A stretch of DNA of 64,000 nucleotides from assembly GCA_016764895.1 (NCBI GenBank), contig JAESRA010000069.1, positions 1,045 to 65,044 of the forward strand, read 5' to 3'. The position numbers were made by a program, and so were the translations under genes. A model generated the notes under the pieces. It saw only the letters and a program-made list of their open reading frames with translations, did no database searches and was not told the DNA's origin. Source of the stretch: Phycisphaerales bacterium (GTDB taxonomy: Bacteria; Planctomycetota; Phycisphaerae; Phycisphaerales; UBA1924). Positions within the stretch are counted from its first letter, which is position 1, and every line of letters begins with the position of its first letter. This document shows, one piece after another, positions 12,330 to 33,265 of this stretch.

Positions 12330-13322
12330 GTGATGAATATCAAGTTTGCTTCGATGTGTGCTTTGGTCGGACTTTGTGTTGTGAGTGCCTTTGGTGAAGA
12401 GGTTGTTGTCCAGAACGACAGTCTTACAGCCGGAGACAGCGCGAGTATCTGTCCGTGCTTTGTTGGTGGCGAAGAAGCCGCCGTCTGGCTGACATCGCCC
12501 TGTGATGGCTCGATCGTGGCGATTCAAATCTTCTGGAGATCACAATTTGGCGGAGCCCCGATATCGCTCGAAGATTCGATCATTGTCTACGAAGGGGGCG
12601 CGTTTCCCAATGTCGGCCCCGTCAAGAGCGAACTGCTCTCGCCCGCAATGATCGACGGCGGACTCAACGAGTTCCGGTATACCGATGAGAACCAAACAAT
12701 CCCGATCAACATCCCGGTGACCGCCGGCGAAGAGTTTGTCGTTTCGCTCAAGTTCTTTAACAACTCGACAGTATTTGGCCCCAGTATTCTCTTTGATGAT
12801 TCAGGGATCACGCCAGGCAAGAACGCAGTCAAAGTCAACGGCAACCTCTGGCAGTCAGCCGAATCGCTCGGGGTCACAGGCGACTGGATTATCCGTGTCA
12901 TAGTTGATTGTACAGGCGGTCTTGTTGGCTCGGTATGTCTCGAGAACGGCGGGTGTATTGATGGAATGACCGAAGAAGAAGCCGATTTACTCGGCGGCGT
13001 ATGGAGCGGCCCCGGATCAACATGTGCAGAGGTTCAATGTCTTGGTGCTTGCGAAATCCCCGCTACCGGAGCGTGCGTTCAGTTTGATCTGGCGACCTGT
13101 GATGTGGTTGGCGGCAACTGGTTCGGCCCCGGAACAACCGAGTGTGTCACCTCATGCCCGCCAGACATGAACATGGACGGCATGCTCGATTTCTTCGATA
13201 TTTCCGCATTCTTGACCGCATTTTCAAACCAGGACCCCGTCGCCGACTTCACAGACGATGGCCAGTTCGACTTCTTCGATATTTCCGCGTTCTTGACGGC
13301 GTTCGGGCAAGGGTGTCCATGA
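12330..13322 (+). CDS. secreted protein of unknown function with C-terminal 55-aa double EF-hand dockerin-like module (island gene A)
   Basis: Signal peptide MMNIKFASMCALVGLCVVSAFG (GTG 12330 / ATG 12333). Two Cys-rich C...GG-x-W-x-GPG-x2-C repeats. Terminal module at 13155-13319: CPPDMNMDGMLDFFDISAFLTAFSNQDPVADFTDDGQFDFFDISAFLTAFGQGCP. Confidence 0.85.
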   Translation: MMNIKFASMCALVGLCVVSAFGEEVVVQNDSLTAGDSASICPCFVGGEEAAVWLTSPCDGSIVAIQIFWRSQFGGAPISLEDSIIVYEGGAFPNVGPVKSELLSPAMIDGGLNEFRYTDENQTIPINIPVTAGEEFVVSLKFFNNSTVFGPSILFDDSGITPGKNAVKVNGNLWQSAESLGVTGDWIIRVIVDCTGGLVGSVCLENGGCIDGMTEEEADLLGGVWSGPGSTCAEVQCLGACEIPATGACVQFDLATCDVVGGNWFGPGTTECVTSCPPDMNMDGMLDFFDISAFLTAFSNQDPVADFTDDGQFDFFDISAFLTAFGQGCP

Positions 13323-13411
13323 CTCCTACGATCAAATAAGTGCCGATGTGTTGACGGCCTTGTGTAGAGGCACAAAATCCGTCTCCAGTGACATCCACGC
13401 AGGAGTATCAG

Positions 13412-15325
13412 ATGATGAGCACCTCTTCACTGAATGGTTTACTGTCACCGATTCGATTCGGAATATTGGCATGTGTGCTATCGACTCCTGTGCATGCGCA
13501 AGACCAGTTTGGGATCGATCAAGCAAAGGCAAGCATGGACGCGGCCGATGTTGCCCAGCCCCAGGCAGGCCCGCCGTTGTGGGAACCGAGCACGCCTACG
13601 CAGAACCCATACTCAGAATCCAAGCGTGTGCTTGGAAAAATACTGTTCTGGGATGAACAACTTTCCAGCGACAACACGATTTCATGCGGCACCTGCCACA
13701 TCCCCGCCAGCGGCGGTGCCGATCCCCGCCCTGGGCTTCATCCGGGATTCGACGAATCATTCTTAACCGTTGACGATGTGCTCGGCTCTCGGGGCGTGAT
13801 TCGTATGGATGAGATGGACGAGTACCAGCAGAGTGATTCATTTGGCCTTGAGGTGCAAGTGACAGGTCGCGTGTCGCAGTCCAACATGATGGGGATGTTT
13901 GCAGGGAGTTTGTTCTGGGATGGCCGAGCAGAACTGAACTTCGTCGATCCAGAGACCGGCGAGTTGCTGTTCCAGTCCGGTGTAGCCGGCCTTGAAATCC
14001 AAGCAACCGCGCCGATCTTAAACGAAATAGAAATGGGGCACGCCGGGCGAACATGGGATCAGGTCCGCGACAAGCTCGACCTGGTAAGACCCCTTGCGCT
14101 CTCAGACTCAATCCCGCCAGACATGCTCGCGGCCATTGGTGTCGATCCGACCTACGCAGAACTTTTCGAACTCGCATTCGGCGACCCAGAAATCACAGCC
14201 GTGCGGATCGCCTTTGCTATGGCAACCTACCAGCGGACGCTGATCCCCAACCAATCTCCATGGGACTTGTGGAACGACGGCGATGACGGAGCGATGACAT
14301 TTGAGCAGAAAGCCGGCTTTAGCCTGCTCCAAGCCTCGGCGTGTGGATTCTGTCACGCAGCACCAACCTTCAGCAACTTCGATCTTATGGTTGACGGCGT
14401 CCGCCCTCCATTCGAAGACATCGGCCGTCAGGCAGTGACCGGGCTGAGTTCTGATCGGGGCAAGTTCAAAACCCCATCAATACGAAATGTCGCCCTGCGG
14501 AACCGGTTAATGCACACCGGAGGGCTCGCCGACATCGACGACATCTTTGATTTCTATGGCCACCGCAACGGCCTCGTGCCCTTCTTCGATAACGCTCATT
14601 TTCTCGTGCGATCACCGATCTTATTTAGTGAATCAGGCGAGATCGCGGTCAAGGATTTCTTGGTCAACGCCCTCACAGACCCACGCGTCGCAAACGAGAC
14701 CTTCCCATTCGACCGTCCCGGGCTCTACACAGAACGGGCAGTGCCAAACCCCAAGATCATCGGCAGCGGCGATACCGGTTCGGGCGGCTTTATCCCCAAG
14801 ATGATCGCGGTGATCCCGCCGAACCTGGGCAACGATGATTTCAAGATCGGAGTTGATTTCGCGCTCGGCGGCGCCCAAGCATGGGTCGCGGTTTCTTCAA
14901 ATCCGCCCGTCGGTGGGGTTCTTCCTCAAGACGAGTTGATCGGACCGATCACACTCATCGGCATGGGCAACGGCGGCGGCTTCGGAACACTCGCCTACCC
15001 AATCGCCAATAACCCAGCACTCGACGGCCAACGCCTGTACATGCAGTGGATCATCTCAGACCCCGCCGGACTCAACAAAGGTGGCGATGGATTTGTTCGT
15101 TCACCAGTTGCGCAGCTGGATATATTCTGCACCGAAGCGGTCCCGTGTTCGGTTGCCTGCGCGGCAGATTTCAACGGCGACGGTTTATCGGACTTCTTTG
15201 ATATCGCGGCGTTCCTCTCTGCATTCTCCTCTGGGCATCCATCGGCGGATCTGAGTGGCGACGGATCATTCGATTTCTTTGATATTTCAGCGTTCTTGTC
15301 TGTATTTGGACAGGGATGCCCATAA
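13412..15325 (+). CDS. di-haem cytochrome c peroxidase (CCP/MauG family) with C-terminal dockerin-like module (island gene B)
   Basis: ATG 13412 follows AGGAG at 13401-13405. Signal peptide ...ILACVLSTPVHAQ. Two haem motifs, CGTCH and CGFCH, plus GKFKTPSIRNVALRNRLMHTG, typical of the bacterial CCP family. Module at 15158-15322. Confidence 0.9.
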   Translation: MMSTSSLNGLLSPIRFGILACVLSTPVHAQDQFGIDQAKASMDAADVAQPQAGPPLWEPSTPTQNPYSESKRVLGKILFWDEQLSSDNTISCGTCHIPASGGADPRPGLHPGFDESFLTVDDVLGSRGVIRMDEMDEYQQSDSFGLEVQVTGRVSQSNMMGMFAGSLFWDGRAELNFVDPETGELLFQSGVAGLEIQATAPILNEIEMGHAGRTWDQVRDKLDLVRPLALSDSIPPDMLAAIGVDPTYAELFELAFGDPEITAVRIAFAMATYQRTLIPNQSPWDLWNDGDDGAMTFEQKAGFSLLQASACGFCHAAPTFSNFDLMVDGVRPPFEDIGRQAVTGLSSDRGKFKTPSIRNVALRNRLMHTGGLADIDDIFDFYGHRNGLVPFFDNAHFLVRSPILFSESGEIAVKDFLVNALTDPRVANETFPFDRPGLYTERAVPNPKIIGSGDTGSGGFIPKMIAVIPPNLGNDDFKIGVDFALGGAQAWVAVSSNPPVGGVLPQDELIGPITLIGMGNGGGFGTLAYPIANNPALDGQRLYMQWIISDPAGLNKGGDGFVRSPVAQLDIFCTEAVPCSVACAADFNGDGLSDFFDIAAFLSAFSSGHPSADLSGDGSFDFFDISAFLSVFGQGCP

Positions 15326-15516: not shown

Positions 15517-16875
15517 ATGAAGCATCTTTTGTGTACATGTATTCTCGCCGCCGGAGCAGCCAGTGCTCATGGCCAGCTCTCAAGAGTGGTCTACGCCAAC
15601 GGCATCGACCGTCCTGTGTTTATGACCCACGCCGGTGATGACTCAAACCGGATGTTCGTCATCGAGCAAGAAGGTGCGATCCGAATCATTGATGCGGGCG
15701 GCAACCTGCTGCCAGCACCCTTCATCGATATTGACGCGATCGTAGTCGGCGGCAACAGCGGCGGTGACGAGCGAGGCCTCCTCGGTCTCGCGTTCCACCC
15801 AGACTACGCCAACAACGGCAAGTTCTATGTCAACTACACAGGAAGCGGTACAGCCACCCGCATCGCAGAATACCAGGTTTTAGCGGGTGATCCAGACATC
15901 GCCAACCCAGCCACGGCTCGGATCCTGATGACCATCGGCCAACCATTCTCAAACCACAACGGCGGCTGGATGGGATTCGGCCCAGACGGCTTCCTGTACA
16001 TCGCTACAGGTGACGGCGGATCGGGCAACGACCCAGGAAACCGCGCAGCCAATCTCGGCCAACTCCTCGGTAAAATCCTCCGCATCGATGTCGATACTCA
16101 AGACGCCGGGTTGGAGTACGGGATTCCAGCCGGAAACCCATGGGCCGACGATGGCGACCCCGGTACGCGTGCCGAAATTTGGCACTACGGCCTGCGCAAT
16201 CCCTGGCGGACAAGCTTCGACAGTGAAACCGGCGACATGTGGATCGGCGATGTCGGGCAAAATGCACGGGAAGAAGTGAATCACGATATCGGCAATGTCG
16301 GCGGCAAAAACTACGGCTGGCGATGCCGCGAAGGCTTCCAGGCAACCGGGATGGCATGTACCGCCCCCGATCCATGGACCGATCCGGTGCATGATTACCC
16401 ACTATCGGGCGGCAACTGCTCGGTCATCGGCGGGTTTGTCTATCGCGGATGTGAACTTGGTGAAGCCTATCAAGGAAAGTACTTCTTTGGTGATTACTGT
16501 GCCGGTACCATCTGGACTCTTGATCCAGACAACGGCTACGCCTTGTCAACCGAGTTTGACTTTGGCTTTGGTCTCTCCTCATGGGGAACCGACGAAAGCG
16601 GTGAGTTGTACATGGCCAACCTCTTCGGTGGAACAGTGTACAAAATGGTGAATACAAGTGCACCCGATGTGGACGAAAACGGGATTCCAGATGCGTGTGA
16701 ATCCTCGTGCCTGCCCGACATGAACGGCGACGAAACACTCGATTTCTTTGATATTTCAGCATTCCTGACCGCATTTTCAGCCGGAGATCTAAGTGCGGAT
16801 TTTACCGGTGATGGCGCACTCGATTTCTTTGATATCAGCGCATTCTTGACCGCGTTCGCCACTGGCTGCCCATAA
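15517..16875 (+). CDS. PQQ-dependent sugar dehydrogenase (soluble glucose/sorbosone dehydrogenase-type beta-propeller) with C-terminal dockerin-like module (island gene C)
   Basis: Signal peptide MKHLLCTCILAAGAASAHG. ERGLLGLAFHPDY, NHNGGWMGFGPDGFLYIATGDGG, LGKILRIDV, GLRNPWR, GDVGQNAREEVN and NYGWRCREG match the GSDH family. Module at 16708-16872. Confidence 0.9.
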   Translation: MKHLLCTCILAAGAASAHGQLSRVVYANGIDRPVFMTHAGDDSNRMFVIEQEGAIRIIDAGGNLLPAPFIDIDAIVVGGNSGGDERGLLGLAFHPDYANNGKFYVNYTGSGTATRIAEYQVLAGDPDIANPATARILMTIGQPFSNHNGGWMGFGPDGFLYIATGDGGSGNDPGNRAANLGQLLGKILRIDVDTQDAGLEYGIPAGNPWADDGDPGTRAEIWHYGLRNPWRTSFDSETGDMWIGDVGQNAREEVNHDIGNVGGKNYGWRCREGFQATGMACTAPDPWTDPVHDYPLSGGNCSVIGGFVYRGCELGEAYQGKYFFGDYCAGTIWTLDPDNGYALSTEFDFGFGLSSWGTDESGELYMANLFGGTVYKMVNTSAPDVDENGIPDACESSCLPDMNGDETLDFFDISAFLTAFSAGDLSADFTGDGALDFFDISAFLTAFATGCP

Positions 16876-17130: not shown

Positions 17131-17157
17131 ACGACGCTCAATCAGGGAGTAAGTGAG

Positions 17158-18237
17158 ATGAGAAACATGTTTCAAAAATGTACAGTCAGCATCGGAATAA
17201 CACTGGCAACGCTATCAGGTACCGCCTTTGGAGATGAGTTCGACGGGGTCGTTGATTCCGTCGCATCTACCGCCGCTCTGTCAGGATCGGTAGAGATTCA
17301 CAACAACGGCATCTTGATCGGCGATTTCAACGCCGAGACAAACCCAACAGGCACCAGCACCATCCCAGGGCTCTTCGGCGGATCGGGCAACAACCCGATC
17401 GACATGCAACTCACCGGCGCAGTCAATACCGATCTCAACACCAACCCCACCGGCTCGATGGTACTCGACATCGACTTTGACCTACTCATCATCGACATCG
17501 AGAATCTCACACTCGATCTACTGGGCGGCCAAACCGGCGCAGCCCAGCCGACCGTCTCGATGATCTATGACACCTTCCGCTCCGTCAATCCAACATTTCT
17601 CTACTTCGGAGGGATTCCATTCGAATTCCCCATCGGCGATGCGTCAACCATCGATCAAGCCGTAGCCACGCAGACAGGCCCAGCCGCAGGCGTGCTCGTT
17701 GCATCTGGAAATCCCGATGTCTTCGACTTCACCATCTTGATCCCGGCAGAACTAGCGATCGAACTCACCCTTGGCTTCGGAGATTTCCAACCGCCAGATG
17801 ACGGGCTCGCACCACTCCCAATGGTCTTGCCTCTGACGGGAATTATCCAACGCATGGGCGATGGTTCAGTCCAACTAACCATGACCACCGAGACACAACA
17901 ACTCGAGCAGATCACACCGATTGAAGGCGTCACATCACCAGAGATTCCCTTCGAGCTCCCGACATTTGGAGCCGAAACAGCCGGGGTACTCTTTACGCTC
18001 ACTCCGGATGAACTGGCCGTCGGACTCAGCTACGGCTGGACACTCTTTGTCAATGGCTCGCCTGCGTCCTGTATCCCAGATTTCAATGGCGACGGCGAAC
18101 TCGATTTCTTCGATATCTCCGCATTCCTCACGGCATTCTCAGCCAGCGACCCAGCCGCCGATCTCACCGGCGACGGCGCGTTGGACTTCTTTGACATCAG
18201 CGCATTCTTAACCGCGTTCGCCGCTGGCTGCCCATAA
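17158..18237 (+). CDS. secreted protein of unknown function with C-terminal dockerin-like module (island gene D)
   Basis: GGGAG SD-like motif at 17145-17149. Signal peptide MRNMFQKCTVSIGITLATLSGTAFG. I recognise no catalytic motif. Module at 18070-18234: CIPDFNGDGELDFFDISAFLTAFSASDPAADLTGDGALDFFDISAFLTAFAAGCP. Confidence 0.8.
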   Translation: MRNMFQKCTVSIGITLATLSGTAFGDEFDGVVDSVASTAALSGSVEIHNNGILIGDFNAETNPTGTSTIPGLFGGSGNNPIDMQLTGAVNTDLNTNPTGSMVLDIDFDLLIIDIENLTLDLLGGQTGAAQPTVSMIYDTFRSVNPTFLYFGGIPFEFPIGDASTIDQAVATQTGPAAGVLVASGNPDVFDFTILIPAELAIELTLGFGDFQPPDDGLAPLPMVLPLTGIIQRMGDGSVQLTMTTETQQLEQITPIEGVTSPEIPFELPTFGAETAGVLFTLTPDELAVGLSYGWTLFVNGSPASCIPDFNGDGELDFFDISAFLTAFSASDPAADLTGDGALDFFDISAFLTAFAAGCP

Positions 18238-18431: not shown

Positions 18432-21400
18432 ATGATGAATCGGAAAGTAAATCTATCGGCATTGGTAATCGTGGCTTTGGCGGGTTCAAGTGCAGGGGCA
18501 CAGGTGATCGATTGGGCATCGGCTGTTGATGGCAACTGGAACGACGCCTTCAACTGGAGCCCGGCGAATGTTCCCAACCTGATTGGCGAGGACGCAGTGC
18601 TTGGGCTGGTCGGGGCGTACACCGTTCATACGATCAATAGCTTTACGATCGGATCGCTGACGCTTTCCAACCCTCTTGTAGTGCTCCAAATCGGGAGCAA
18701 CCAAACACTGATTTTGAACGGCGACCTGAACAACAGCGGAATTGTCAATGTCAATTTCCAAGGGACGATCTTCAATGCACACCTCAGTTTCAACACCGAT
18801 GCGACGATTGCCGGCAACGGATCGATCCTGCTCAATGCGCAGAGTGATCCGGGCGATGCGCAGATTTTGGCAAACGCATTCACCGTGACCAACGCAAGCG
18901 GGCACCTGATTCATGGCTCAGGTCATATCGCCGGCGCGATGATCAACTCAGGAAACATCATCGCCGATGACCCCGCCGGGGCCGGGCTGCGGCTGGGCGG
19001 AACGCTCACGCAGACCCCGGGCGGAAACGCCGGGGCCGATGCGGGGACGCTGTTGCTCGGCAATGGATCCATCACCACCGGCGGCGAACTGCTGTCCATC
19101 AACGGCGGTGTGATCTCGGTTCAAACTTCGGCAACCATCGGGAACATCATCAACTCCGGCGACATCGAAGTACCAGGACAAGGCTGGTCGCTGCGTATGA
19201 ACGGGGATGTCCAGAACAACGGCACCATCACGCTCAACTCAAACGGTGCAATATTCAATGCACATCTCTGGTTTGACGGCGCCACAACACTTGCGGGTTC
19301 GGGCAATGTAATGATGGTCAGCGCCGGCGACTTAGGCGACGCCCAGATTCTCACCAGCGGACTCTTTGATGGCACGATCGGCGGGAATCAAACCGTCGAG
19401 GGCAGCGGGCTCATCACCGGCGGATCCGATGGCACAATCGTCAACCTCGGCACGATCAATGGCAACGATCCGGCTGTGGGGCTGGGGCTTGCCGGGAACC
19501 ACAGCGGGGTCGGCGGCGGCGTATATCGGTCTGACGGCGGATCGATTATTCTCCGCAACGGGCTTGTCCTCAACGGCGGAACCTTTGATTCCTCAGGCAC
19601 CGGCATCGTGGAAATGACAAGCAGCGGCATCGCCACACTCTCCAACATCACCAACCTCGGCCAGATGGGTGTCCGCGGGCAAGGCGGCTCGATCACGCTG
19701 ACTGGGCCAATGACCAACAACGGGACTCTGACACTCAACAGTAATGGGGCAATATTCAATGCTCATCTGCGGTTCGGCGCAAGCACCGCCATTGATGGTT
19801 CGGGCACAATCAACATGGCCACCGCAGGAAGCTCTGGTGATGCACAACTCTTCACAGACGGCCCATTCATCGGCACGATCGGAGCCAGCCAGACCGTACA
19901 AGGATCAGGACAAGTCGATGGACGCAGCGACGGCACCATCGTCAACAACGGCACGATCAACGGCAACGACCCTGCATTCCCACTCGAACTCCGCGGCAAT
20001 CACACCAGCTCCGGCATGTACCGCTCAGATGACGGCGTGCTTGCACTCATCAATGGGGCAAACCTTGACGGCGGCACCTTTGATTCCTCAGGCACCGGCA
20101 TCGTGGAAATGACAAGCAGTGGCATCGTCACACTCTCCAACATCACCAACCTCGGCCAGATGGGTGTCCGCGGCCAGGGCGGGAGCATCAGTCTTGCGGG
20201 GCCGATGACCAATGATGGGACATTGACCATTAACTCGAATAACAATGGGTTCAACGCCCACCTCCGGTTCGTGGCTGATACGGCGATTACTGGATCGGGC
20301 ACTGTCCGAATGAAGATGGCGGGAAGCGATCTTGGTGATGCCCAGCTCTTTACCGATGGCAAGTTCTTCGGTGTGATCGGCGCGAACCAGACAGTCGCGG
20401 GCAGCGGGATTGTGGATGGACGCTCGCTGGGTACGATTGTGAATGATGGAACCATCAACGGCGACGACCCAGTCTTTGAGTTGCGGCTCCAAGGGAACCA
20501 CGACGGGACCGGCGGCGGTGTGTACCGCTCCGACGACGGCCTGCTCGGGTTATCCAACGGGTTGGTCATGAACGGTGGAACCTTTGATTCTTTGGGCACC
20601 GGTATTGTGGACATGACCACCAGCGGCACCGTGATGCTCTCGAACATGACGAACTTCGGAACGCTGGGTATCCGTGGCCAGGGCGGGGTTGTTGGTCTTT
20701 CGGGTCCTCTGACCAATAACGGTACGATTCTCATCAACTCCAATGACAATGGGTTTAATGCTCATATCCGGTTCTTCGCGGCCACCGAGATCAACGGGAC
20801 CGGGACGATCAATATGGAGTTGACGGGGAGCCTTGGTGATGCTCAGATCCTCAATGACCAGGGGTTCATCGGGACCATTGGCAGTGGGCAGACGATAACA
20901 GGTTCTGGAATGATTGTTGGTGAGATGAACATGAACGGGATATTTGATCCGAGTTCAGACGAGCGACGGTTCCATCTGGCCGGTGACACAAACCTCTCGG
21001 CGACCTCTGGGTTCGTTGCCGATCTTGGCGGGTTGCTGATAGGCGAGTTTGACCGGCTGACTATGGGCGTCGGCGACACCATGAATCTTGACGGCACGCT
21101 GACGGTCAATCTTGATGCCGGGTACTTGCCGGAGTTCGGAGATTCATGGGACATCATCTCTGGAGGATCAGTCACCGGCGAGTTCGCCTCTGAGGTTGTC
21201 CCCGAATCCGGGATCGGCCTGGTGTACAGGGTAATCTACGAGCCAAGCCGTGTATTTGTTGTGTTAACCTGCGCAGCGGATCTGACGGGTGACAATGTTC
21301 TCGACTTCTTCGACATCTCGCTGTTCTTAAACTACTTCACCTCAAATGATGTCAGGTCAGATCTCAACGGCGATGGCGTCTTTGACTTCTTTGATATTTC

Positions 21401-21521: not shown

Positions 21522-22340
21522 ATGAAAGCAATTTGTGTATTGTGCCTAGCCGGCGTTGTGTCAACTGCCTCAGCCCAATCAATGCTGGACTTTACGATCG
21601 ACCCAACTCAGTCCTCGGTTGATCTGACCATCGAGATCGATCTCGGCGGGCTTGGTGGAGATACCGATAGTGATACCTCGTCGCTCTCAGGATTTGTCCA
21701 AGCGGCTCCAGACGATCCCGAAGCCGCCTCTTCTCTCTGGTTGCACGACTTCTTTACTTCAATGGACTCAGACCTGACCTACAACTGGTCGCTCGGATTC
21801 TTATCCACAGCCGACGCGAACTTGGTCGGCGGGACAGTCGAGTACGCAAATCCAGGCATTATTCTCGGCCCAGTACCCGTAGTCGCTGGTGACTTCGAGT
21901 TTCCAAGCGTCTCGGTCATTCTTGGCGGAGTGATGACGGTCAACTACAACATCTTCCTATTCGGTTCAGGGTCCGAGGTTATTGATCTATCAACCCTCGC
22001 CCCATCAGACACGGTCTATTCAGGATCAGTGGTTTCCAGTAATGGCGTGATGACCATGACCAGCACAGTCCCGCTCGCCGGAACTCAGCCATTGGTTATT
22101 GATGGGAGTGTACTCGGAGATGTGATTTTCAGCGGCACCGCGACCATGGTCGCCACCGCAGACATCCCCGATTGCCCCGCAGACTTCACCGGTGATGGCG
22201 TGCTCGACTTCTTTGATATCTCAGCATTCCTCACGGCCTTTGGCAATCAAGAACCCGCCGCCGATATGAACGCTGACGGAGCATGGGATTTCTTTGACAT
22301 CTCAGCATTCCTGACCGCGTTTAGTACCGGATGCCCTTAA
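21522..22340 (+). CDS. secreted protein of unknown function with C-terminal dockerin-like module (island gene F)
   Basis: Signal peptide MKAICVLCLAGVVSTASAQ, a ~200-aa body with no motif I recognise, and the module at 22173-22337. Confidence 0.8.
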   Translation: MKAICVLCLAGVVSTASAQSMLDFTIDPTQSSVDLTIEIDLGGLGGDTDSDTSSLSGFVQAAPDDPEAASSLWLHDFFTSMDSDLTYNWSLGFLSTADANLVGGTVEYANPGIILGPVPVVAGDFEFPSVSVILGGVMTVNYNIFLFGSGSEVIDLSTLAPSDTVYSGSVVSSNGVMTMTSTVPLAGTQPLVIDGSVLGDVIFSGTATMVATADIPDCPADFTGDGVLDFFDISAFLTAFGNQEPAADMNADGAWDFFDISAFLTAFSTGCP

Positions 22341-24566: not shown

Positions 24567-27500
24567 ATGCGGCTCAAGCTTCTCAATGGTTCGGTTTTTT
24601 CAACGACTCTGACGACCGCCATCGTCCTCACCAGCGGGCTCGCCGCCGCAGCACCCGTCCAGTGGAAAAACACCGCCGATCCAGCACTACACAGCGCCCG
24701 GCTCAGCCACCAGTCCCCAAAGTCTGTCCTCCAATCAGCCGCCGCCCTCAACAACCATTTGAGCAACGACGGGTATGTCTTGGTGCAACTTTCTAAAACA
24801 CCCGACAAATCCGCTCGCCAAGCATTCATCAATGACGGGCTCGAACTGCTCAGCCCAGTAGGCGACAACACCTACTTCGCCCGCGTCAGTGCCAACGCCG
24901 ACGCCGCTGTTTTTGAGACACGCCTTATCGACGCCGGCCAAATCACCCGCAGCCACAAACTCCACCCATTAATCCAAAACGACGAGATGCCATCATGGGC
25001 CATCGTCGGCAGCGACACCGTCAAAGCAATCAGCGGGACTATCGAAAACTACACCGTCGCGGCCTATGTCATGATGCACTCAGATGTAGATATCGCCTCA
25101 CCAGAAATGGACAAACTTCTCAAGTCATACAAAGGCACCATCCGCTCGGTCGTGATGTCAATGAACACACTGGTCGTCGAGATTCCCTACCAGCAACTCA
25201 AAAAACTCGCAGACGACGGACGCGTTCAATGGATCGAGCCACCGCTCCCACCATTGGATACCACAAACGCATCCAACCGCGTGCTCACCCAAGCCAGCAT
25301 CGCCCAGTCAGCACCATATTCGCTCGACGGCACAGGGGTCACCGTGTTCGTCTATGACGGCGGATCAATCCGCGCCGCCCACAACGACTTCTCAGGCCGC
25401 GTAACCAATATCGACTCCACCGCAACAAACTTCCACGCAACCCATGTCGCCGGCACCATCGGAGGCGACGGCAGCACCAACATCAACAACCGAGGCATGG
25501 CGCCCGGTGTCAATCTTCTCGGGGCCGGCTTCCAAGTTCCGGGCGGATTGAGCGAAGGCTTCTTGTACACCGATCCGGGTGACATGGAATCCGACTACGC
25601 GATGGCACTATCCCTGGGCGCATCAATCTCAAACAACTCCATCGGCTCCAATGTCGCCCAGAACGGATACCCATGCGCCTGGCACGGCGACTACGGCATC
25701 ACCGCAGGTGTCATCGACAATATCATCCGCGGATCACTCGGCGATCCCATCACCATCTTCTGGGCAGCCGGAAACGAACGCGGAAACGGTCGCTGCGGCA
25801 CCGGCTATGGCACAACAGCACCTCCCGGAAACAATAAAAACGCAATCTCCATCGGGGCCGTCAACTCCAACGATGATTCGATGACCAGCTTCTCAAGTTG
25901 GGGCCCATCAGACGACGGCCGCATCCGCCCCGTCATCTCAGCACCCGGCTGCCAGAGCGGTTCAGACAACGGCGTCACATCCACCGGCGACGGATCAAAC
26001 ACACAATACATCACCCTGTGCGGAACCTCCATGGCCTCGCCAACAGCAGCAGGTGTCGCCGCACTGATCCTCCAAGACTTCCGAGTCCAGTTCCCAGCAT
26101 GGGGCGACCCATCAAACCAACTCATGAAAGCCATCCTGATCGAAGGCGCTGTAGACATCCTCAATACCGGACCAGACTTCCAAAGCGGCTACGGCTCGAT
26201 CCGCGCAGTCAATAGCATCGACTTCATGCGCACCGGAAACTTCAAAGAAGAAACAATCGACCAAGGCACCTCATCAACCTTCACGGTCACTGTCAATCCG
26301 GGCGACCCCGTCTTCCGCGTCACCATCGCATGGGATGATCCCGCCGGCGCTCCCAATGTATCGCCCGCCCTGGTCAACGATCTGGACCTGATCGTCACAG
26401 ACCCAAACGGTGTTCGTCATTATCCATGGACGCTCAACCCAGCAAGCCCAAGTGCAGCAGCGGTCCGCACACAAGAAGACCACCTCAACAATGTCGAGCA
26501 AGTCTTTGTAGAAAACCCAGCATCGGGCACCTGGCAAATCCAAGTGCTGGGCACCTCAGTTTCAGATGGCCCGCAATCCTTCGCGCTCACCTCAGCACTC
26601 GACCTCGGCGAAGGGCTCCTCTCGATCTCACTCGCTGATGCAGCACCCGAACTCATTCCGCCCGGAACCCCAATCGAGGTTCTTGCATTTGTCAACGAAG
26701 GGATCGACACGGTCATTCCCGGATCAGTCCAGCTCAACTACCACTACGCCCCAGGCGGATTCATCTCAGTCCCAATGAGCGACAACGGAGACGGCTCCTT
26801 CTCAGGAACCGTTCCCGGCGCAGACTGCGGGCAGTTCATCGAATACTACATCTCCGCCAGCGGCGTAGTCGCCGGCTCGGTCTTCTCACCACCACTTGGC
26901 GCAAGCGGCCCAACCCACACCCAAATAGGTGAAATCAAAATCGTCCTGACAGACAACTTCCAAACCGACAACGGCTGGTCCGTATCAAGCGACACAACAG
27001 ACGGCCAATGGACCAGAGGCGTTCCCGTAAACTGTTCAACCAGAGGCGCACCGGCTGCAGACTCCGACGGCTCAGGACAGTGCTGGATCACCGACAACGA
27101 TGCCGGAAACTCCTGCAACTCGGATGTTGACAACGGCACAACAATCCTAACCTCACCAATTTATGACATCTCCAGCGGCGGAGAATTCTCCTTCGACTAT
27201 TGGTACTCAGACATCGCCACCGGCGAAGTCAACGGCGACGAATGGGCCGTCGAAGGCTCAACAGACGCAGGAAACAACTGGACCCGCCTGCGAACCTCCA
27301 CCACAGTATCCCAGACATGGCGGAGCGATACCATCACCGTCGGCCAAGAAATCGCCGCATCATCGACAATGCGGTTCCGCTTCATCGCCAACGATGTGGG
27401 CACTCAAAATGTCATCGAAGCAGGCCTCGACAATGTCCAGATCACACGCTTCGTGTGCGATGAGACAACCGGCTGCATCCCAGACTTTACAGACGATGGG

Positions 27501-27641
27501 ATACTGGACTTCTTTGATATTTCTGCGTTCTTAAGTGCGTTTGGAAGCGGTGATCCAGTCGCCGACATCAACGGCGACGGCACGCTGGACTTCTTCGACA
27601 TCTCCGCCTTCATCGCCGCCTTCAACGCCGGCTGTCCATAA
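24567..27641 (+). CDS. S8 subtilisin-like serine protease with P-domain-like and MAM/jelly-roll-like domains and C-terminal dockerin-like module (island gene H)
   Basis: Signal peptide. Catalytic triad contexts VFVYDGG (Asp), HATHVAGTIGG (His) and GTSMASPTAAGVAALIL (Ser). Followed by RVTIAWDDPAG...NDLDLIVTDPNG and DNFQTDNGWSV...GLDNVQI. Module at 27474-27638. Confidence 0.9.
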   Translation: MRLKLLNGSVFSTTLTTAIVLTSGLAAAAPVQWKNTADPALHSARLSHQSPKSVLQSAAALNNHLSNDGYVLVQLSKTPDKSARQAFINDGLELLSPVGDNTYFARVSANADAAVFETRLIDAGQITRSHKLHPLIQNDEMPSWAIVGSDTVKAISGTIENYTVAAYVMMHSDVDIASPEMDKLLKSYKGTIRSVVMSMNTLVVEIPYQQLKKLADDGRVQWIEPPLPPLDTTNASNRVLTQASIAQSAPYSLDGTGVTVFVYDGGSIRAAHNDFSGRVTNIDSTATNFHATHVAGTIGGDGSTNINNRGMAPGVNLLGAGFQVPGGLSEGFLYTDPGDMESDYAMALSLGASISNNSIGSNVAQNGYPCAWHGDYGITAGVIDNIIRGSLGDPITIFWAAGNERGNGRCGTGYGTTAPPGNNKNAISIGAVNSNDDSMTSFSSWGPSDDGRIRPVISAPGCQSGSDNGVTSTGDGSNTQYITLCGTSMASPTAAGVAALILQDFRVQFPAWGDPSNQLMKAILIEGAVDILNTGPDFQSGYGSIRAVNSIDFMRTGNFKEETIDQGTSSTFTVTVNPGDPVFRVTIAWDDPAGAPNVSPALVNDLDLIVTDPNGVRHYPWTLNPASPSAAAVRTQEDHLNNVEQVFVENPASGTWQIQVLGTSVSDGPQSFALTSALDLGEGLLSISLADAAPELIPPGTPIEVLAFVNEGIDTVIPGSVQLNYHYAPGGFISVPMSDNGDGSFSGTVPGADCGQFIEYYISASGVVAGSVFSPPLGASGPTHTQIGEIKIVLTDNFQTDNGWSVSSDTTDGQWTRGVPVNCSTRGAPAADSDGSGQCWITDNDAGNSCNSDVDNGTTILTSPIYDISSGGEFSFDYWYSDIATGEVNGDEWAVEGSTDAGNNWTRLRTSTTVSQTWRSDTITVGQEIAASSTMRFRFIANDVGTQNVIEAGLDNVQITRFVCDETTGCIPDFTDDGILDFFDISAFLSAFGSGDPVADINGDGTLDFFDISAFIAAFNAGCP

Positions 27642-27659: not shown

Positions 27660-27706
27660 AAAAAAGAAGCCGGGCACGGATCAATTCCGTGCCCGGCCTT
27701 GTTTTT
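27660..27706. terminator. bidirectional Rho-independent terminator between convergent genes H and I
   Basis: A-run, then GCCGGGCACGGA-TCAAT-TCCGTGCCCGGC (12-bp perfect stem), then CTTGTTTTT. Confidence 0.8.
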
Positions 27707-27722: not shown

Positions 27723-30122
27723 TCAGGGGCAGCCCTGACCAAAGATCGTCAAGAATCTCGATATATCAAAGAAATCCAGAACGCCATCGTTGTTGAGATC
27801 AGCCTCAATGTTTCCGCTGGTAAAGGCGCTCAGGAACGCAGAAATATCAAAGAAGTCCAGTATCCCATCAGCGGTAAAGTCCGCATCAGAGCACGCCGAG
27901 GTCAACTGGTCCGGGCCTACATACACATTGTCGATGTAGATCGGGTCATCCGAAGACGAACTCATCCGAAGCCGCAGACCGTCGAAAGCCCATGCGGTAA
28001 TCGGAGTCTGGAACTCAAAAGTCTCAGGCGAAGTGCCCAACGAACCAGCGTCGATGATCCCCAGTGATTCCCAGACCCCCGCGACATTCTGGATTTCAAA
28101 TTCGATCGAATCATCCCCACTGGCACCAGGGCCAGCCCACGCATCAACCCGAATAAACCCAGGCGCGATCCCGAACTGCAACATCGGGATATCGAAGGAC
28201 TCGATCACCTGTTCTCCAATAAACTCGGCCGCGTGTGTTGAGTTGCTGATACCAACCCCAACCCCGGTATTGCTCTCCCAACTCAGGGCAGAAACCACAC
28301 CGGTCTCAAACGAGTCTACAAACGGCGCAACCGGAACATTTGAAGGGAGTTCGATTGTAAAGTCGTCAATCAACCATTGGCTCGAAGCCCCCGCCCCATC
28401 AGCGGTAATCCGAATCTGCACGCCATGCCAGCGAAACTCGATAGGAAGCTGCATCGCAAATTGGAGGTAGCCCTGGGTATCAGTTCCTGTTGCTGTGTAG
28501 TCAAGCAGGGTCTGCCATGATCCGTCGGATCGCAAAGACTCGAGCGTTAATGTATCTCCAGAAACAGCCCCATCTATTTTGAGCCCGTAACTGATTACAG
28601 GAAGCTGCGTGATCATCGTCCCGCCCAGCGGGGTACTCGTGATCTGGTCAGATCCATCAAGAAGCAGCACAGAACCAGCTCCCGAAGACTCGGCGTCAAC
28701 AACCGTTGACACCGATCCAGAAGTAATCGAGAACAGATCCATCCACGAAGCACTTTCAAAAGGCTCCGATACCGGGATCGGCATCCGAGGCGTATACACA
28801 AGAGCATCCTGCATCGCATTAAATGTATTGACCCGCCCACGACCAAAGCTGTTGTCTCGCCCAGGGGCACCAAGATCATCAACACTGTTGTACAGAATAT
28901 CTTGAACATCCTGACCGCTCAGATCCGAACGAACCGAGAAGATCATCGCCCCAACACCAGCAGCGATCGGCGATGCATAGCTCGTCCCCGAGCCGTTCCC
29001 GTAGCCCCCACCGACACGGGTAGATCGAACACTTGATCCCGGAGCAACAAGGTCAACACCAGTGCCGAAGTTTGAGAACCCAGATTTGTTGTCGGAGAAT
29101 GTTGTGGATCCAACCATAACAAGATCAATCCCGTCAAAGCCAACAAACGCGTTGTCATTCCCTGCTGCCCAAAAAAGCAGTCCGCCGCGATCAATGATAT
29201 ATTTGGCTGTTGTCTGATTCCCCGATCCACCGCCACCAGAGTACGACACATTGACAACAGTTGCCCCATTATCAATAGCCCACCGGGAACCTTCAAGAAG
29301 ATCAAAGGCGTTCGCATTCCCACTGGCAATATTACTCACCCGCACAGGCATCACACGGAAGTCCCAGCCAGCCCCAACAACCCCGGTCCCGTTGTTTCCT
29401 TGAGCCGCAGCACATCCAGAAACAAAGGTTCCGTGCCCGTTGATATCTTCAATGTTGGCACCATCAGCCTGCGACAGGTTATTCACCGCGTTGTATCCTG
29501 GTACAAGAGCGTCTTGCAGGTCCGGGTGGTTTGTGTCAACCCCTGTATCACACACCGCCACCACAATATCGCTCTCGCCTGTATGCAGATCCCACGCCGC
29601 TGCAGACTGGATTCTGGTGTGTTGCCAGCTCGATCCAAACTGAGGATCATTCGGCGTATTGAGCGGGAAGAGCATCCAGTTGGGCTCAACAAACTTGTAG
29701 TCACCCGTTGCCATCAACATCGCGGCAAACTCGCCTTCGCTGACCCCGTCGGGGACGACGATCGTAAATTCATCAACAAACGCGCTCGATTTAACAACCG
29801 TCTGCCCAAGGCGGGCTCTGGCAACCGGGGCCCGATCGCTCTTGGCATGAACAATAAGCTCCCCAGTGAACTCTCTGTTCCGGGCAGATTCAATAAAGAC
29901 AAGCGGCTCAAGAATCGCAGCTCTCATGACTTCTTCATCGCCGGGCTGAAGAACCAGCACCGATCGGACACGGTCGATTTTCTGAACATCACTCACCCTC
30001 TCAACACCCCGATCCTTTGAATCAGGAGTTGGGGCAGCATTCACGACGCTCGCGGGCAATCCGCAGCACAACAAGAGTGAGCACGCCAGTGTGGCATGAC
30101 CGAGCTTCAAATGGATAGGCAT
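27723..30122 (-). CDS. S8 subtilisin-like serine protease with two jelly-roll-like domains and C-terminal dockerin-like module (island gene I)
   Basis: Signal peptide MPIHLKLGHATLACSLLLCCGLPASVVNA. VAVCDTGVD, HGTFVSGCAAA and GTSYASPIAAGVGAMI. Module at 27726-27893 (56 aa): CSDADFTADGILDFFDISAFLSAFTSGNIEADLNNDGVLDFFDISRFLTIFGQGCP. Confidence 0.9.
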   Translation of the reverse strand: MPIHLKLGHATLACSLLLCCGLPASVVNAAPTPDSKDRGVERVSDVQKIDRVRSVLVLQPGDEEVMRAAILEPLVFIESARNREFTGELIVHAKSDRAPVARARLGQTVVKSSAFVDEFTIVVPDGVSEGEFAAMLMATGDYKFVEPNWMLFPLNTPNDPQFGSSWQHTRIQSAAAWDLHTGESDIVVAVCDTGVDTNHPDLQDALVPGYNAVNNLSQADGANIEDINGHGTFVSGCAAAQGNNGTGVVGAGWDFRVMPVRVSNIASGNANAFDLLEGSRWAIDNGATVVNVSYSGGGGSGNQTTAKYIIDRGGLLFWAAGNDNAFVGFDGIDLVMVGSTTFSDNKSGFSNFGTGVDLVAPGSSVRSTRVGGGYGNGSGTSYASPIAAGVGAMIFSVRSDLSGQDVQDILYNSVDDLGAPGRDNSFGRGRVNTFNAMQDALVYTPRMPIPVSEPFESASWMDLFSITSGSVSTVVDAESSGAGSVLLLDGSDQITSTPLGGTMITQLPVISYGLKIDGAVSGDTLTLESLRSDGSWQTLLDYTATGTDTQGYLQFAMQLPIEFRWHGVQIRITADGAGASSQWLIDDFTIELPSNVPVAPFVDSFETGVVSALSWESNTGVGVGISNSTHAAEFIGEQVIESFDIPMLQFGIAPGFIRVDAWAGPGASGDDSIEFEIQNVAGVWESLGIIDAGSLGTSPETFEFQTPITAWAFDGLRLRMSSSSDDPIYIDNVYVGPDQLTSACSDADFTADGILDFFDISAFLSAFTSGNIEADLNNDGVLDFFDISRFLTIFGQGCP

Positions 30123-30201: not shown

Positions 30202-32832
30202 TTACGGGCATCCACTACTAAATGCGGATAGGAATGCAGAGATATCAAAGAAATCCCATGCTCCGTCACCATTAAAGTCACTGATTGGGTCATTGGCACC
30301 AAACGCGCTGAGGAATGCGGAAATATCAAAGAAGTCCAACACACCATCGCCGTTGATGTCGGCGGGGCAAGGGTCTGGCTCGTCAATGAAGTCCATCGTC
30401 ACCGCGATATTGTCCACAAACCAGTCATCGTCGGCCTCATCACCCTGAGCCGTCAAACGAAGCTGCAAATCAGCCCCGTAAGCGATAAACGGAAGCTCCA
30501 GTTGATTCAAATCAAACCCGCTCTGATCAACTCCGTCTGAAACAATCGTGGTCAGTTCGGCCCATGTGCCAATAATGTTCTTGTATTCAACAAGCAACGA
30601 CTCGCCAGCTTCAACACCCTTGTGTTGTGTATAGAACTGAACATACACGATCGGCTCCGCGGTGGTCACATCGATTGATTTGGTGGTCATGCTATCGGTG
30701 TTGTCAAGGTTTGCGCTCAGTGTTCCAGAAGGCTCATTGTCGCCAAGGGTGCTGACAGCGGCGTTGCTCGATTCCCAGTTGAAGTTCAGCGATATTCCGG
30801 ATTCAAAGGTATCGATCCATGGAACAGTGTTGCCCTCAAAGAACTTGATCTCGACATCATCAATGAACCAGTTGTCATCGCTCTGGTCGCTTGTTGTCGT
30901 AAACCGCAACCGGAAATCATTATGAATAGCCAGTCCAGGGACTTCAAGCAGGTGGTACGCAAACTCGCTCTGGTCAACGCCGTCCGACGGGATGACCGTG
31001 AGCGGGGTCCAAATCCCGGCGATGTTTGCATATTCGACAACAAGATCCTCACCCGCCTCGGTGCCTGAGTGTTGTGTGTAGAAACTGATCTGTCCCGTTT
31101 GCAAGAAGAACTCCGCAGCCCGGACCATCACCGTATTGATCTGGGCTGTCCCAGAAAGGTTCAATGAATCAGGCCCGCTGGGTTCAGCCAACGCATCCGA
31201 GTTCACAGTCACAGCCCCGCTTAAATCACGCCAAAGCGCCAGTGACGGATCATTGAACAAATCAGCAAACGGAAGCGATACCGCCGAAGGCCCAAAGATC
31301 GCATCCTCGATAGCCCGGCCAACATTAATCCGTCCGTTCCCAGTCTGGTTATCTTCGCCGACCGCCTGCTTGTCGTCACAAGAGTTCAGTAGAATCGCTT
31401 CAACCTCATCAGCACTCAACGCAGGATTGGCAGAGCGAATCAGCATCAACGCCCCAGCAGTAATCGGAGACGAGAAACTGGTGCCCGTGGTGTTTCCGTA
31501 TCCGCCGCCTCTTGTGGTTGTCTGAATATTGGTTCCGGGAGCGATGCAGTCGATCCCAACACCAAAGTTCGAGAACGCCGCATAGTTATCACTTGAGTTT
31601 GATGCACCAACAATGATCACTTTCGCCCAGTCATTTGTTTGATTGCCCACCCCGCTATTACCCGACGAAAAGACAAGTAAGTTCCCCTGTGACCGGATCG
31701 AAATACCGGTCGTGTTGGTCGCGTTATCCTCGGCCCCGCCATACGAACAGTTCGAAACATACGCGCCGTTGTCCGATCCCCACCGAGCGCCTTGGAGAAT
31801 ATCTGACAGAAATGCAGTCCCCCCAGAGTTAATCGAAACCCGGCAAGACATGATCCCAAAGTTCCACCCGACCCCCGATACCCCAACACCATTATTCCCA
31901 ATAGCCGCGGCCGAACCCGCAACCATAGTCCCATGCCCGTTGAGCGTATCATCAACAATCCCGCCATTGGCTTGCGATAAATTAGTCACCGCATTAAACC
32001 CAGAAACAAGCGCGCCCTGCAAATCAGGATGATCCTGGTCAACACCGGTATCACACACCGCGATAATCTCGCCCGACCCCGTCGTAAAGTCCCACGCGCC
32101 GTAGGTGTCGATCCGTGTAGAAGGGTGGTACCACTGAAGGTTTATCCGTGGATCGTTGGGAATCGTTTCAACCGGGTAGCACAACCAATCGATCGAAACA
32201 AACTCATAATCACCCGTCTGCATCAACACCTCGGCCATCGTCTCGGCACTCACCCCAAACGGGAGATGAATCGTGTGCATATCCACATCATCAAACGCCT
32301 CAATCAATGACGGCTCGATCCGCGACCGCGCTTCGACCATTCGGAGTTGGGCTTGTCCAACAAACTCGGCCCCGCCCTGGGCGCCGGCCGCAACTGCTCG
32401 CACCTGTTGTCCGGCGGCCTCTGCCATCGCCAACTCTGTACTCATCTGCTGAAGCATCTGAGATTGTGTCTTAACCTTCACAGTCAGCCGGTTGGTCCGC
32501 TCTTTGAGCCCGATCGTTTCGGTAAAAATTTCGCTTGGCACAATGCTTCCATCAAGCAAACCCGCATCCCGCGTTTCCCAATTGAACGCCTTGGTGATAC
32601 TCCGCTTCTGAGCATTACTCAAGGAAACAGGAGCCGCCGATCCGCTGATCCTCGTCCCATCTACAGCCTTGATGCCAGGATTCAAAAATGAGTCATTGGC
32701 AACCGCACTCCCACTGGCAAGCACAATCGCCAGCCCTGCTGCTACTGCGGTTATTTTCATTGCCTGGCGGAAGTTTGCCTGGCGGAAATTCGCCTGACGG
32801 AAATTTGTTTGGCGGAGTGTCGAATTTTTCAT
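30202..32832 (-). CDS. S8 subtilisin-like serine protease, paralog of gene I, with duplicated jelly-roll-like domains and C-terminal dockerin-like module (island gene J)
   Basis: ATG 32832 is preceded by AAGGAAAGAG; an alternative ATG at 32760 sits directly before the hydrophobic signal core MKITAVAAGLAIVLASGSAVAN. IAVCDTGVDQDHPDL, GHGTMVAGSAAA and GTSFSSPITAGALMLI. Two ~150-aa repeats end DDNWFIDDVEI and DDDWFVDNIAV. Module at 30205-30369. The ORF track extends to 32976 without support. Confidence 0.9.
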   Translation of the reverse strand: MKNSTLRQTNFRQANFRQANFRQAMKITAVAAGLAIVLASGSAVANDSFLNPGIKAVDGTRISGSAAPVSLSNAQKRSITKAFNWETRDAGLLDGSIVPSEIFTETIGLKERTNRLTVKVKTQSQMLQQMSTELAMAEAAGQQVRAVAAGAQGGAEFVGQAQLRMVEARSRIEPSLIEAFDDVDMHTIHLPFGVSAETMAEVLMQTGDYEFVSIDWLCYPVETIPNDPRINLQWYHPSTRIDTYGAWDFTTGSGEIIAVCDTGVDQDHPDLQGALVSGFNAVTNLSQANGGIVDDTLNGHGTMVAGSAAAIGNNGVGVSGVGWNFGIMSCRVSINSGGTAFLSDILQGARWGSDNGAYVSNCSYGGAEDNATNTTGISIRSQGNLLVFSSGNSGVGNQTNDWAKVIIVGASNSSDNYAAFSNFGVGIDCIAPGTNIQTTTRGGGYGNTTGTSFSSPITAGALMLIRSANPALSADEVEAILLNSCDDKQAVGEDNQTGNGRINVGRAIEDAIFGPSAVSLPFADLFNDPSLALWRDLSGAVTVNSDALAEPSGPDSLNLSGTAQINTVMVRAAEFFLQTGQISFYTQHSGTEAGEDLVVEYANIAGIWTPLTVIPSDGVDQSEFAYHLLEVPGLAIHNDFRLRFTTTSDQSDDNWFIDDVEIKFFEGNTVPWIDTFESGISLNFNWESSNAAVSTLGDNEPSGTLSANLDNTDSMTTKSIDVTTAEPIVYVQFYTQHKGVEAGESLLVEYKNIIGTWAELTTIVSDGVDQSGFDLNQLELPFIAYGADLQLRLTAQGDEADDDWFVDNIAVTMDFIDEPDPCPADINGDGVLDFFDISAFLSAFGANDPISDFNGDGAWDFFDISAFLSAFSSGCP

Positions 32833-33265
32833 TTGTTGGTCTCTTTCCTTATTGAGATGGCCAAGCCTGGGGCTCGCTGTATGTCCGATAAAAAGCCGCA
32901 TACGCAATGATGCACTTGCACCCAGAACCAACTGAGCGACCACGCACACAATGCCCGAATTTTGCCCCGAAATCAAGGCAAAAACCCCTTTAGTACCCCA
33001 GAATCACATGATTCAGGCGTACCCGCGAGCATCTCGGACCCTTCCTCCAGAAGAGCCTAAGAGTTCACACCATCAAGGTCTGAGAACCAGTCCTGTTTCT
33101 CGTCCTGTTTTTCGTCTTACTTTTTCAACACTGAATACATCAGTCACCATCATCAGGACCGATAACAGCAAGTGCCACACAAATCCAGCACCGTCCTACT
33201 CTTCGCATCCCAGCACCCGCTGGTTGCAGATATCGGGCGATTCCACCCCATTCAAACCTAAACAA

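Follow-up and report, generated by a model that had tools for sequence, protein, structure and literature searches.

A block of ten Phycisphaerales genes encoding exported proteins that share a dockerin-like, GC-type C-terminal module

We analyzed a 64,000-nucleotide stretch of a Phycisphaerales genome (assembly GCA_016764895.1, contig JAESRA010000069.1, positions 1,045 to 65,044 of the forward strand), here called the window, in which a block of ten consecutive genes encodes proteins that share one C-terminal module. All positions given below are those of the window. A first-pass annotation, made without database searches, had placed the block at 12330-32976, and the list of open reading frames (ORFs) with their translations confirmed ten consecutive ORFs there, eight on the plus strand and two on the minus strand. 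As had also been described, every product ends at the stop codon in a module of 55 residues (56 in gene I) with two DFFDIS-type repeats. The genes, named A to J, are listed here with the position of the module, the Pfam matches of the product and its score on the NCBIfam model NF041540, 'GC-type dockerin domain-anchored protein'.

Gene A, 12330-13322, plus strand, module 13155-13319: signal peptide, Cys-rich domain and GC-type dockerin tail; no Pfam family; NF041540 43.5 bits.
Gene B, 13388-15325, plus strand, module 15158-15322: di-haem CCP/MauG-like peroxidase (PF03150, 8.8e-33) with two CxxCH motifs; NF041540 42.8 bits.
Gene C, 15517-16875, plus strand, module 16708-16872: pyrroloquinoline quinone (PQQ)-dependent glucose/sorbosone dehydrogenase (GSDH; PF07995, 6.7e-36); MBL4809095.1; NF041540 45.9 bits.
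Gene D, 17158-18237, plus strand, module 18070-18234: paralogue of F, same blastp family, presumed beta-barrel cargo; NF041540 49.2 bits.
Gene E, 18432-21437, plus strand, module 21270-21434: 1001 residues, no Pfam family, variant tail end GDCL; NF041540 36.7 bits.
Gene F, 21522-22340, plus strand, module 22173-22337: predicted up-and-down beta-barrel cargo; NF041540 48.9 bits.
Gene G, 22535-24460, plus strand, module 24293-24457: penta-haem c-type cytochrome with five CxxCH motifs and weak MtrC/MtrF and cytochrome c7 matches; NF041540 47.7 bits.
Gene H, 24567-27641, plus strand, module 27474-27638: S8 subtilase (PF00082, 3.2e-34); GenBank MBL4809100.1; NF041540 42.9 bits.
Gene I, 27723-30122, minus strand, 56-residue module 27726-27893: S8 subtilase (PF00082, 1.1e-41) with DTG, HGT and GTSYASP catalytic motifs; NF041540 41.8 bits.
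Gene J, 30202-32976, minus strand, module 30205-30369: S8 subtilase (PF00082, 2.3e-38); NF041540 46.4 bits.

The end of gene J at 32976 is a mechanical TTG start; the true start is probably Met73 (about 32760), after which the signal peptide is found. For genes E to H the product lengths are identical in independent public gene calls. In GenBank the proteins of the block belong to the metagenome-assembled genome (MAG) of an uncultured Phycisphaerales bacterium (JKY43_034xx, MBL4809095-101) and carry no annotation beyond PQQ-dependent sugar dehydrogenase, S8 peptidase or hypothetical protein; metagenome assemblies of JGI and ENA contain identical genes.

Each half of the module follows the pattern D-x-[NTS]-x-D-G-x-hydrophobic-D-F-F-D-I-S-A-F-L-x-x-F. 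The longer pattern that the first-pass annotation had written for the whole module matches six of the ten tails when taken literally as a regular expression, but all ten in a slightly relaxed form. Likewise, the GCP-stop ending that it had ascribed to every product is found in nine of them, the exception being gene E with GDCL. The Ca-loop ligands were as described, since D/[NTS]/D/D/D at positions 1, 3, 5, 9 and 12 is kept in all 20 loops. An alignment of the ten tails showed 22 invariant columns out of 55 and a mean column identity of 76%, and within a module the two halves, separated by a linker of only 7 residues, are identical at 12-17 of 20 positions. Eight conserved Phe are found within the 55 residues. 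When the 64 kb were scanned in six frames for D[FW]FD[IV], exactly 20 matches were obtained, two in each of the ten genes and none elsewhere, and a chance origin of the repeats is not an issue. Among 252 modules collected from other genomes the EF-hand ligand positions are about 90-100% conserved, with Asp at position 12 in 251-252 of the 252. The module has no hydrophobic span and no Arg/Lys cluster, unlike the tripartite PEP-CTERM and LPXTG-type signals, and no Pro/Thr-rich linker was seen between module and cargo.

The earlier annotation had suggested that an existing family model might cover this tail, and this proved right. On NF041540, for which the curated cut-off is 29 bits, the ten tails reach 36.7-49.2 bits, and the module is therefore already catalogued; NCBI has given the family name to some Phycisphaerales MAG proteins. 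In C-terminal position, G-C terminus and Phycisphaerales source the tails of the block agree with the family, and nothing essential differs apart from the GDCL end of gene E and an internal copy described next. The term 'GC-type dockerin' did not turn up in any paper in a literature search, and the name is thus a curator's annotation and not a tested function. Judged by sequence, the block proteins are members of a catalogued but uncharacterised family and not a new system. What is added here are the Phe-Phe pair at the recognition positions, the logic of a clasp, the number of copies per genome, a census of the cargo, the synteny of the block and a set of negative searches for a partner.

An eleventh NF041540-positive protein is encoded at 44284-46512 (plus strand, 742 residues). 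It has a signal peptide and an N-terminal domain followed by an internal dockerin-like pair at residues 290-340 (about 45151-45303), which scores 34.8 bits on NF041540 and 28.5 bits on a hidden Markov model (HMM) of the module, and aligns without gaps to the block modules (hhalign P 4.5e-9). This pair has no flanking Cys and no GCP end; it is followed by a Cys-rich stretch and a Gly-rich low-complexity tail of about 330 residues (GGNGG...).

The relation of the module to dockerins was analyzed at the level of both sequence and predicted structure. Against the Pfam dockerin model PF00404, with which a comparison had been suggested, the isolated modules align over both repeats, but the scores (15.7-19.0 bits) stay under the cut-off of 22.9 bits, and the ten full-length proteins gave no match to Dockerin_1 at E≤0.01. 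In a profile search of the PDB, dockerins were seven of the top eight matches, with 5lxv_B at E 0.005 followed by 2jnk/2ozn, 2y3n_B, 8ajy_B, 5k39_B, 6kg9 and 6kgc. The type I dockerin of CelS, with its sequence verified against 2MTE/1DAQ, aligned with both halves in register (hhalign P 5.8e-4), and the calmodulin N-lobe, used as a control, gave a P of 0.002 and needed a 9-residue insertion. Sequence statistics alone thus barely separate a dockerin from an EF-hand pair. The canonical EF-hand features are absent: Pfam EF-hand_1/6 scores reach at most 20.5 bits (threshold about 25), position 12 is Asp and not Glu, and there is no entering helix. AlphaFold2 (AF2) predicted the module with a mean confidence (pLDDT) of 94.2 as a coil, loop 1, a helix at 13-24, a short helix, a loop and a helix at 40-52, and the same helices recur in the model of full-length gene F product. 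When this model was compared with the PDB by Foldseek, the best TM was to the C. thermocellum double dockerin 8x3a (TMq 0.55, root mean square deviation 3.5 Å, E 6.4, probability 0.21) and the rest were calmodulins; the domain is too small for Foldseek to support the fold statistically. A dockerin is preferred over an EF-hand pair because of the architecture, that is, no helix before loop 1, Asp at position 12, the 7-residue linker and the AF2 fold. The claim of a dockerin-like tail, in which each of two F-hand Ca loops is followed by a helix, thereby holds, and the resemblance is real but marginal by sequence.

With the type I cellulosomal dockerins (PF00404; CelS 1DAQ/2MTE, Xyn10B 1OHZ_B) the module shares the duplicated 12-residue F-hand loops with Asp at position 12 and a helix after each, as well as a high internal symmetry, a usually C-terminal position and an in-register alignment. 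In type I dockerins the Ser-Thr pair is the core of the cohesin-recognition face, and a Lys-Arg pair also lies on the known cohesin-binding faces. In the alignment with CelS it is the invariant Phe-Phe of each half that falls on Ser-Thr, and Leu-Thr/Ser that falls on Lys-Arg. Further differences from type I dockerins are the shorter tail of 55 residues, the score under the Pfam threshold, the absence of a Pro/Thr-rich linker, the ending at the stop codon throughout the block, and a clasp that would be covalent (Cys-Cys).

The last point concerns the two Cys that bracket the module, one located three residues before loop 1 and the other at the penultimate position. Of the 252 modules from other genomes, 249 have the penultimate Cys and nearly all have the upstream one, the apparent exceptions being alignment offsets of 1-3 residues, and in the mature products of D, E and F these two are the only Cys. 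Slutzki et al. showed that an intramolecular clasp between residues before the first Ca loop and the C-terminal residues, often Pro, is general in dockerins, and that this N-to-C clasp stabilises the fold and improves cohesin binding (PMC3821032). As both Cys are near-universal, are the sole Cys in D, E and F, and sit where dockerins in general have a clasp, the disulfide clamp suggested earlier is plausible, and a Cys(-3)...Cys-Pro-COOH disulfide may plausibly be a covalent version of the dockerin clasp. Cys-bracketed compact dockerin units also occur in tandem arrays among database proteins: two proteins of about 540-610 residues (P0122 and P0142) have 5-7 tandem Cys-bracketed dockerin-like modules and end in ...CGPCP or ...CPVCP, and a third (P0123) has three half-repeats (DFLDISAFL x3).

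All ten products had been described as starting with a signal peptide, and a sequence heuristic (not SignalP) was positive for 10/10; the N-termini resemble Sec signal peptides for signal peptidase I and are unlike lipoprotein signals. By the same heuristic 195 of 223 module genes were positive, compared with 214 of 539 other genes. The identities assigned earlier to the cargo also stand, with CCP_MauG and two CxxCH in B, GSDH in C, five CxxCH in G and Peptidase_S8 in H, I and J. Genes A, D, E and F matched no Pfam family. In gene E internal repeats of about 180 residues were seen by eye; tandem repeats looked for in its DNA were not found. Sequence searches of the PDB gave no solved relative for gene A, and for gene E only dockerins that matched its own tail. 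The AF2 model of F (pLDDT 87.8) has 12 strands and helices at 230-241 and 257-269. Foldseek placed it closest to 1wub, a YceI-like polyisoprenoid-binding protein (E 1.2e-4), followed by OmpA/OmpT/Pla barrels, with low TM throughout. D is presumed to be a beta-barrel as well because it is a paralogue of the modelled F. Both were considered as candidate cohesins and rejected, as AF2 gives an up-and-down beta-barrel and not a jelly-roll. It may be added that the nearest structures of D and F include YceI-like proteins that bind polyisoprenoids or quinones, and that the two genes lie amid those for a di-haem peroxidase, a PQQ dehydrogenase and a penta-haem cytochrome; a barrel of lipid- or quinone-binding type, if modelled correctly, hints at a redox theme in the block.

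The cargo is non-CAZyme in nature, as had been stated, since Pfam identified no glycoside hydrolase (GH) or carbohydrate-binding module (CBM) in the ten genes, nor in 88 full-length representatives of the family. The cargo domains in these 88 are FG-GAP_2 (20), LVIVD (18), Beta_propel (7), Chlam_PMP, beta-helix and Ig domains and peptidases of families S8, M10, M12B and M66. A periplasmic location is typical of di-haem peroxidases, soluble PQQ dehydrogenases and multihaem cytochromes. With several cargos of such a type in the block, the docking site may be the cell surface or the periplasm.

To see how widespread the module is we scanned the GTDB species representatives with strict DFFDISAF patterns, which gave 261 confirmed sites. 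The best 80 of these were all from MAGs; nearly all were labelled Phycisphaerales, Phycisphaeraceae or Planctomycetota, and a few simply 'bacterium'. A search of 1.84 billion cluster representatives gave 2,254 matches at E≤1e-10 and 14,556 at E≤1e-3, the looser set probably including dockerins and EF-hand proteins of a general kind. Of 262 strong database matches, 258 carry the module at the very C-terminus, and 248 of these end in GCP; in genomic loci of other genomes the module directly precedes the stop codon in 227 of 252 copies. In two related genomes, counting sampled loci only, there are at least 50 distinct module genes (MAG_29, 299 kb) and at least 39 (OFTM189, 236 kb), and other 20-kb loci hold up to 10 modules each. 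Because of the many copies per genome and the diverse cargo, the tail is a genome-wide tag on the general exported proteome rather than a feature of this block. The proposal that the block encodes a docking system of its own was thereby not upheld: it holds cargo genes only, and the ten genes are one of many clusters of tagged genes and not a self-contained system.

The term 'island' used in the earlier description is also misleading, as the block belongs to a syntenic segment of the chromosome that has been inherited vertically. Genes for a PEP-utilising enzyme, rho, an ArsR-like helix-turn-helix (HTH) regulator, A-J, a 2-hydroxyacid dehydrogenase and trpE follow one another in this order in at least six genomes (OFTM189, MAG_29, HXMU1429-2, UBA3190, JB052 and binchicken_co208_89), and gene A orthologues with a module are found in 6 loci. 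The DNA identity to the closest syntenic genome is only 78.5%, and still every orthologue in at least six species retains the module, which diverges no faster than its cargo. Modules of orthologues are 82-91% identical, compared with 49-84% (mean 67%) for paralogues. As orthologues keep their modules, and these are more alike than those of paralogues, the tails are old and have been inherited vertically with each gene. Recent duplication or gene conversion of the tails was rejected on the same comparison and on the paralogue DNA identity (mean 65%). A mobile island was rejected as well, as the GC content is uniform, tRNA or Rfam elements are absent and the synteny extends across species, and PADLOC gave no matches that would indicate a defence island.

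Stand-alone modules were also looked for. Most short database matches are truncated gene calls, and the idea that module-only mini-proteins are common was rejected; the only genuine case (P0005, JKY43_08915, at 4001-4249 of locus L077 of the same organism) is an 82-residue gene with a signal peptide and a GC-type module, located 157 bp downstream of the ATP synthase alpha gene. At a similar atpA-linked locus in four other genomes (L001, L003, L014 and L060) a signal peptide, a domain of about 170 residues that by eye resembles a proprotein-convertase P-domain, and the module are encoded. Since other species have the longer gene at that position, the 82-residue gene looks like a natural deletion of the cargo that kept the tag.

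The absence of a cohesin, sortase or exosortase from the 64-kb window, noted earlier by eye, was borne out when nearly every other ORF of appreciable size was searched against Pfam and NCBIfam. Outside the block, the window encodes housekeeping functions (dxr, RNase E/G, rho, trpE, pdxJ, a Mur ligase, a leucyl aminopeptidase, nuo subunits and guanylate kinase), as well as sulfotransferases, a protein of FG-GAP/ASPIC type, pseudopilins in a small cluster and a few ORFs without a family.

The reading that we favour, with somewhat better than even confidence, is that a Ca2+-folded, disulfide-clasped mini-dockerin docks Sec-exported proteins non-covalently onto one putative envelope receptor. The N-terminal heuristic suggests that the proteins would be exported by Sec through a cleavable signal peptide. 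In the oxidising and Ca-rich envelope the last 55 residues would then fold into a compact dockerin; the loop residues are in place and the fold is predicted, which together point to Ca binding. A disulfide from the Cys before loop 1 to the penultimate Cys of G-C-P would lock this fold. The two near-identical halves, in which the alignment places the invariant Phe-Phe at the type I Ser-Thr positions, would present these residues at the surface, and the Phe-Phe face could plug non-covalently into one common putative receptor in the envelope. Possibly, this would allow the tagged peptidases, redox enzymes, beta-propeller and beta-barrel proteins to stay with the cell instead of diffusing into the seawater.

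Several results speak against such a docking module. The dockerin threshold of Pfam (22.9 bits) is not reached, the calmodulin N-lobe aligns (P 0.002) almost as well as a dockerin, and no Foldseek match to a dockerin reaches significance (E 6.4, TMq 0.55). The strict C-terminal placement with an invariant GCP end is unusual for dockerins and would also fit a sorting or processing machine that recognises the terminus. Neither the window nor about 1.3 Mb of related loci revealed a receptor. Cohesin-2 of CipA, a PDB-verified sequence, was used as a single-sequence probe with phmmer and jackhmmer against the 18,005 ORFs of the window and these loci and gave no match, in a search of low sensitivity that covered part of each genome. 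Moreover, when 895 genes of 73 related loci were clustered, the recurring neighbours without a module were only housekeeping genes, the syntenic flanks and pseudopilin-like proteins.

A conventional explanation would be a true cohesin-binding dockerin, with a divergent cohesin scaffold elsewhere in the genome that builds a peptidase and redox complex of the 'planctosome' type on the outer membrane. Such a complex was proposed earlier as a hypothetical peptidase-docking structure in freshwater Planctomycetes of the family Nemodlikiaceae, where cohesin and dockerin modules with peptidase cargo have been reported (PMC6461901), and the three S8 peptidases of the block would fit it, as would the dockerin-like sequence and fold and the near-perfect twofold internal symmetry (12-17/20 identical), which resembles that of type I dockerins with a dual binding mode. 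However, the planctosome model was built on cohesin and dockerin domains recognised by Pfam, together with scaffold and adaptor proteins that are named (PMC6461901). Here the tail is instead a distinct Cys-bracketed subfamily, the cargo adds redox enzymes and many beta-propeller proteins, no cohesin was found in the window or the related loci within the limits of the search just described, and the family-less F and its paralogue D are predicted beta-barrels. Phe-Phe and Leu-Thr/Ser replace the Ser-Thr and Lys-Arg of the known faces, and because these recognition positions differ the known cohesin surface would not fit. We regard a cohesin partner as unlikely. The arrangement also differs from cellulosomes in that no scaffoldin was found, the cargo has no GH or CBM and the host is a diderm planctomycete and not a Firmicute; with the non-cellulosomal dockerins, such as that of C. 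perfringens NagH (2JNK/2OZN, the second-best PDB sequence match), it shares the tagging of non-cellulolytic enzymes, peptidases included.

Alternatively, the tail could be a C-terminal export or sorting signal for a dedicated machine, serving passage of the outer membrane or covalent attachment via the penultimate Cys, and may be cleaved or modified. Its extreme C-terminal placement and invariant G-C-P-COOH are what such a signal would show, and one lineage-restricted C-terminal tag on dozens of unrelated exported proteins per genome recalls PEP-CTERM with exosortase, LPXTG with sortase and the C-terminal domains of the type IX secretion system (T9SS); in addition, cargos that acquire cofactors and fold in the periplasm would, for display on the surface, have to be carried across the outer membrane. 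Unlike these tags, though, the module has no transmembrane helix and no basic cluster, with true PEP-CTERM-like signals present on two other proteins of the window, and it is a confidently predicted Ca-loop domain and not a T9SS beta-sandwich. Type I secretion is opposed by the Sec-type N-termini of all ten proteins (by heuristic), and the loops are of the 12-residue EF type, not the GGxGxD nonapeptides of RTX substrates. The joint conservation of both Cys is more readily explained by an internal disulfide than by a free reactive Cys, and the persistence of the cargo-less gene JKY43_08915 and the internal copy of the module in 44284-46512 also argue against a terminal signal, which we consider quite improbable. 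About as small a probability is given to a tail with no protein receptor, acting as a Ca2+-dependent stabilising or self-associating tag, or binding lipopolysaccharide, capsule, sulfated glycan or peptidoglycan through its Phe-rich face. No protein partner emerged from any search, eight conserved Phe in 55 residues are more than a two-helix core obviously needs, and the invariance of the sequence across paralogues and species fits a chemically constant ligand; the sulfotransferase and glycosyltransferase genes in the window are weak, circumstantial support. On the other hand, we know of no Ca-loop (F-hand) dockerin that binds a glycan or lipid, and the twofold-symmetric helical face matches the protein-binding mode of dockerins. 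Returning to docking onto an envelope receptor, a bolder version would be that GC-type dockerins bind no cohesin at all and that in each cell the Phe-Phe face docks 50-100 exported proteins onto one receptor of a new kind, which could be a protein of non-cohesin fold or a glycan or lipid of the envelope. This appears doubtful to us; if true, it would represent a lineage-specific retention in the envelope, giving marine Phycisphaerales a whole docked exoproteome of haem and PQQ redox enzymes, peptidases and beta-propellers.

To our knowledge, few ligands of dockerin-like modules outside cellulosomes have been established. The GC-type family could be a clean test case, with a near-invariant interface, dozens of cargos per genome, a strictly defined terminus and a natural variant without cargo. 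Phycisphaerales are often associated with algae, and a receptor, if found, would show by what means these abundant marine bacteria hold on to their peptidases and redox enzymes. A further possible use of the module would be as a compact docking tag of 55 residues that is Ca-switchable and disulfide-locked.

Two further features were found next to or within the block.

HTH regulator of ArsR/SmtB-like type, 11449-12081, minus strand: divergent from gene A; matches to HTH_20 and NF033788, both weak.
Bidirectional terminator-like hairpin, 27667-27699, both strands: between the convergent genes H and I; perfect GC-rich stem of 12-14 bp with a T run on both strands.

The family of the HTH protein also flanks the block in five other loci, and the protein may regulate the block. 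From its sequence, the hairpin is likely a bidirectional intrinsic terminator.

At the other end of the window two paralogous small secreted proteins, encoded at 59963-60619 and 60623-61348 (both minus strand), have tripartite PEP-CTERM-like ends, VPSPAGLSLIGLGGLVAARRRRA-stop and VPTPGSLVVLSGVLALGARRRGD-stop. The pair adjoins a GspG-like pseudopilin gene at 61324-62127. Because of these two tails the organism seems to have exosortase-type substrates too, with no exosortase gene in the window. Close to the start of the window there are two adjacent ORFs of the sulfotransferase family, 370-1170 (plus strand, weak match) and 1167-1994 (minus strand), followed by a tetratricopeptide repeat and GT41 glycosyltransferase gene at 1979-3772, and these genes could relate to sulfated glycans of the envelope.

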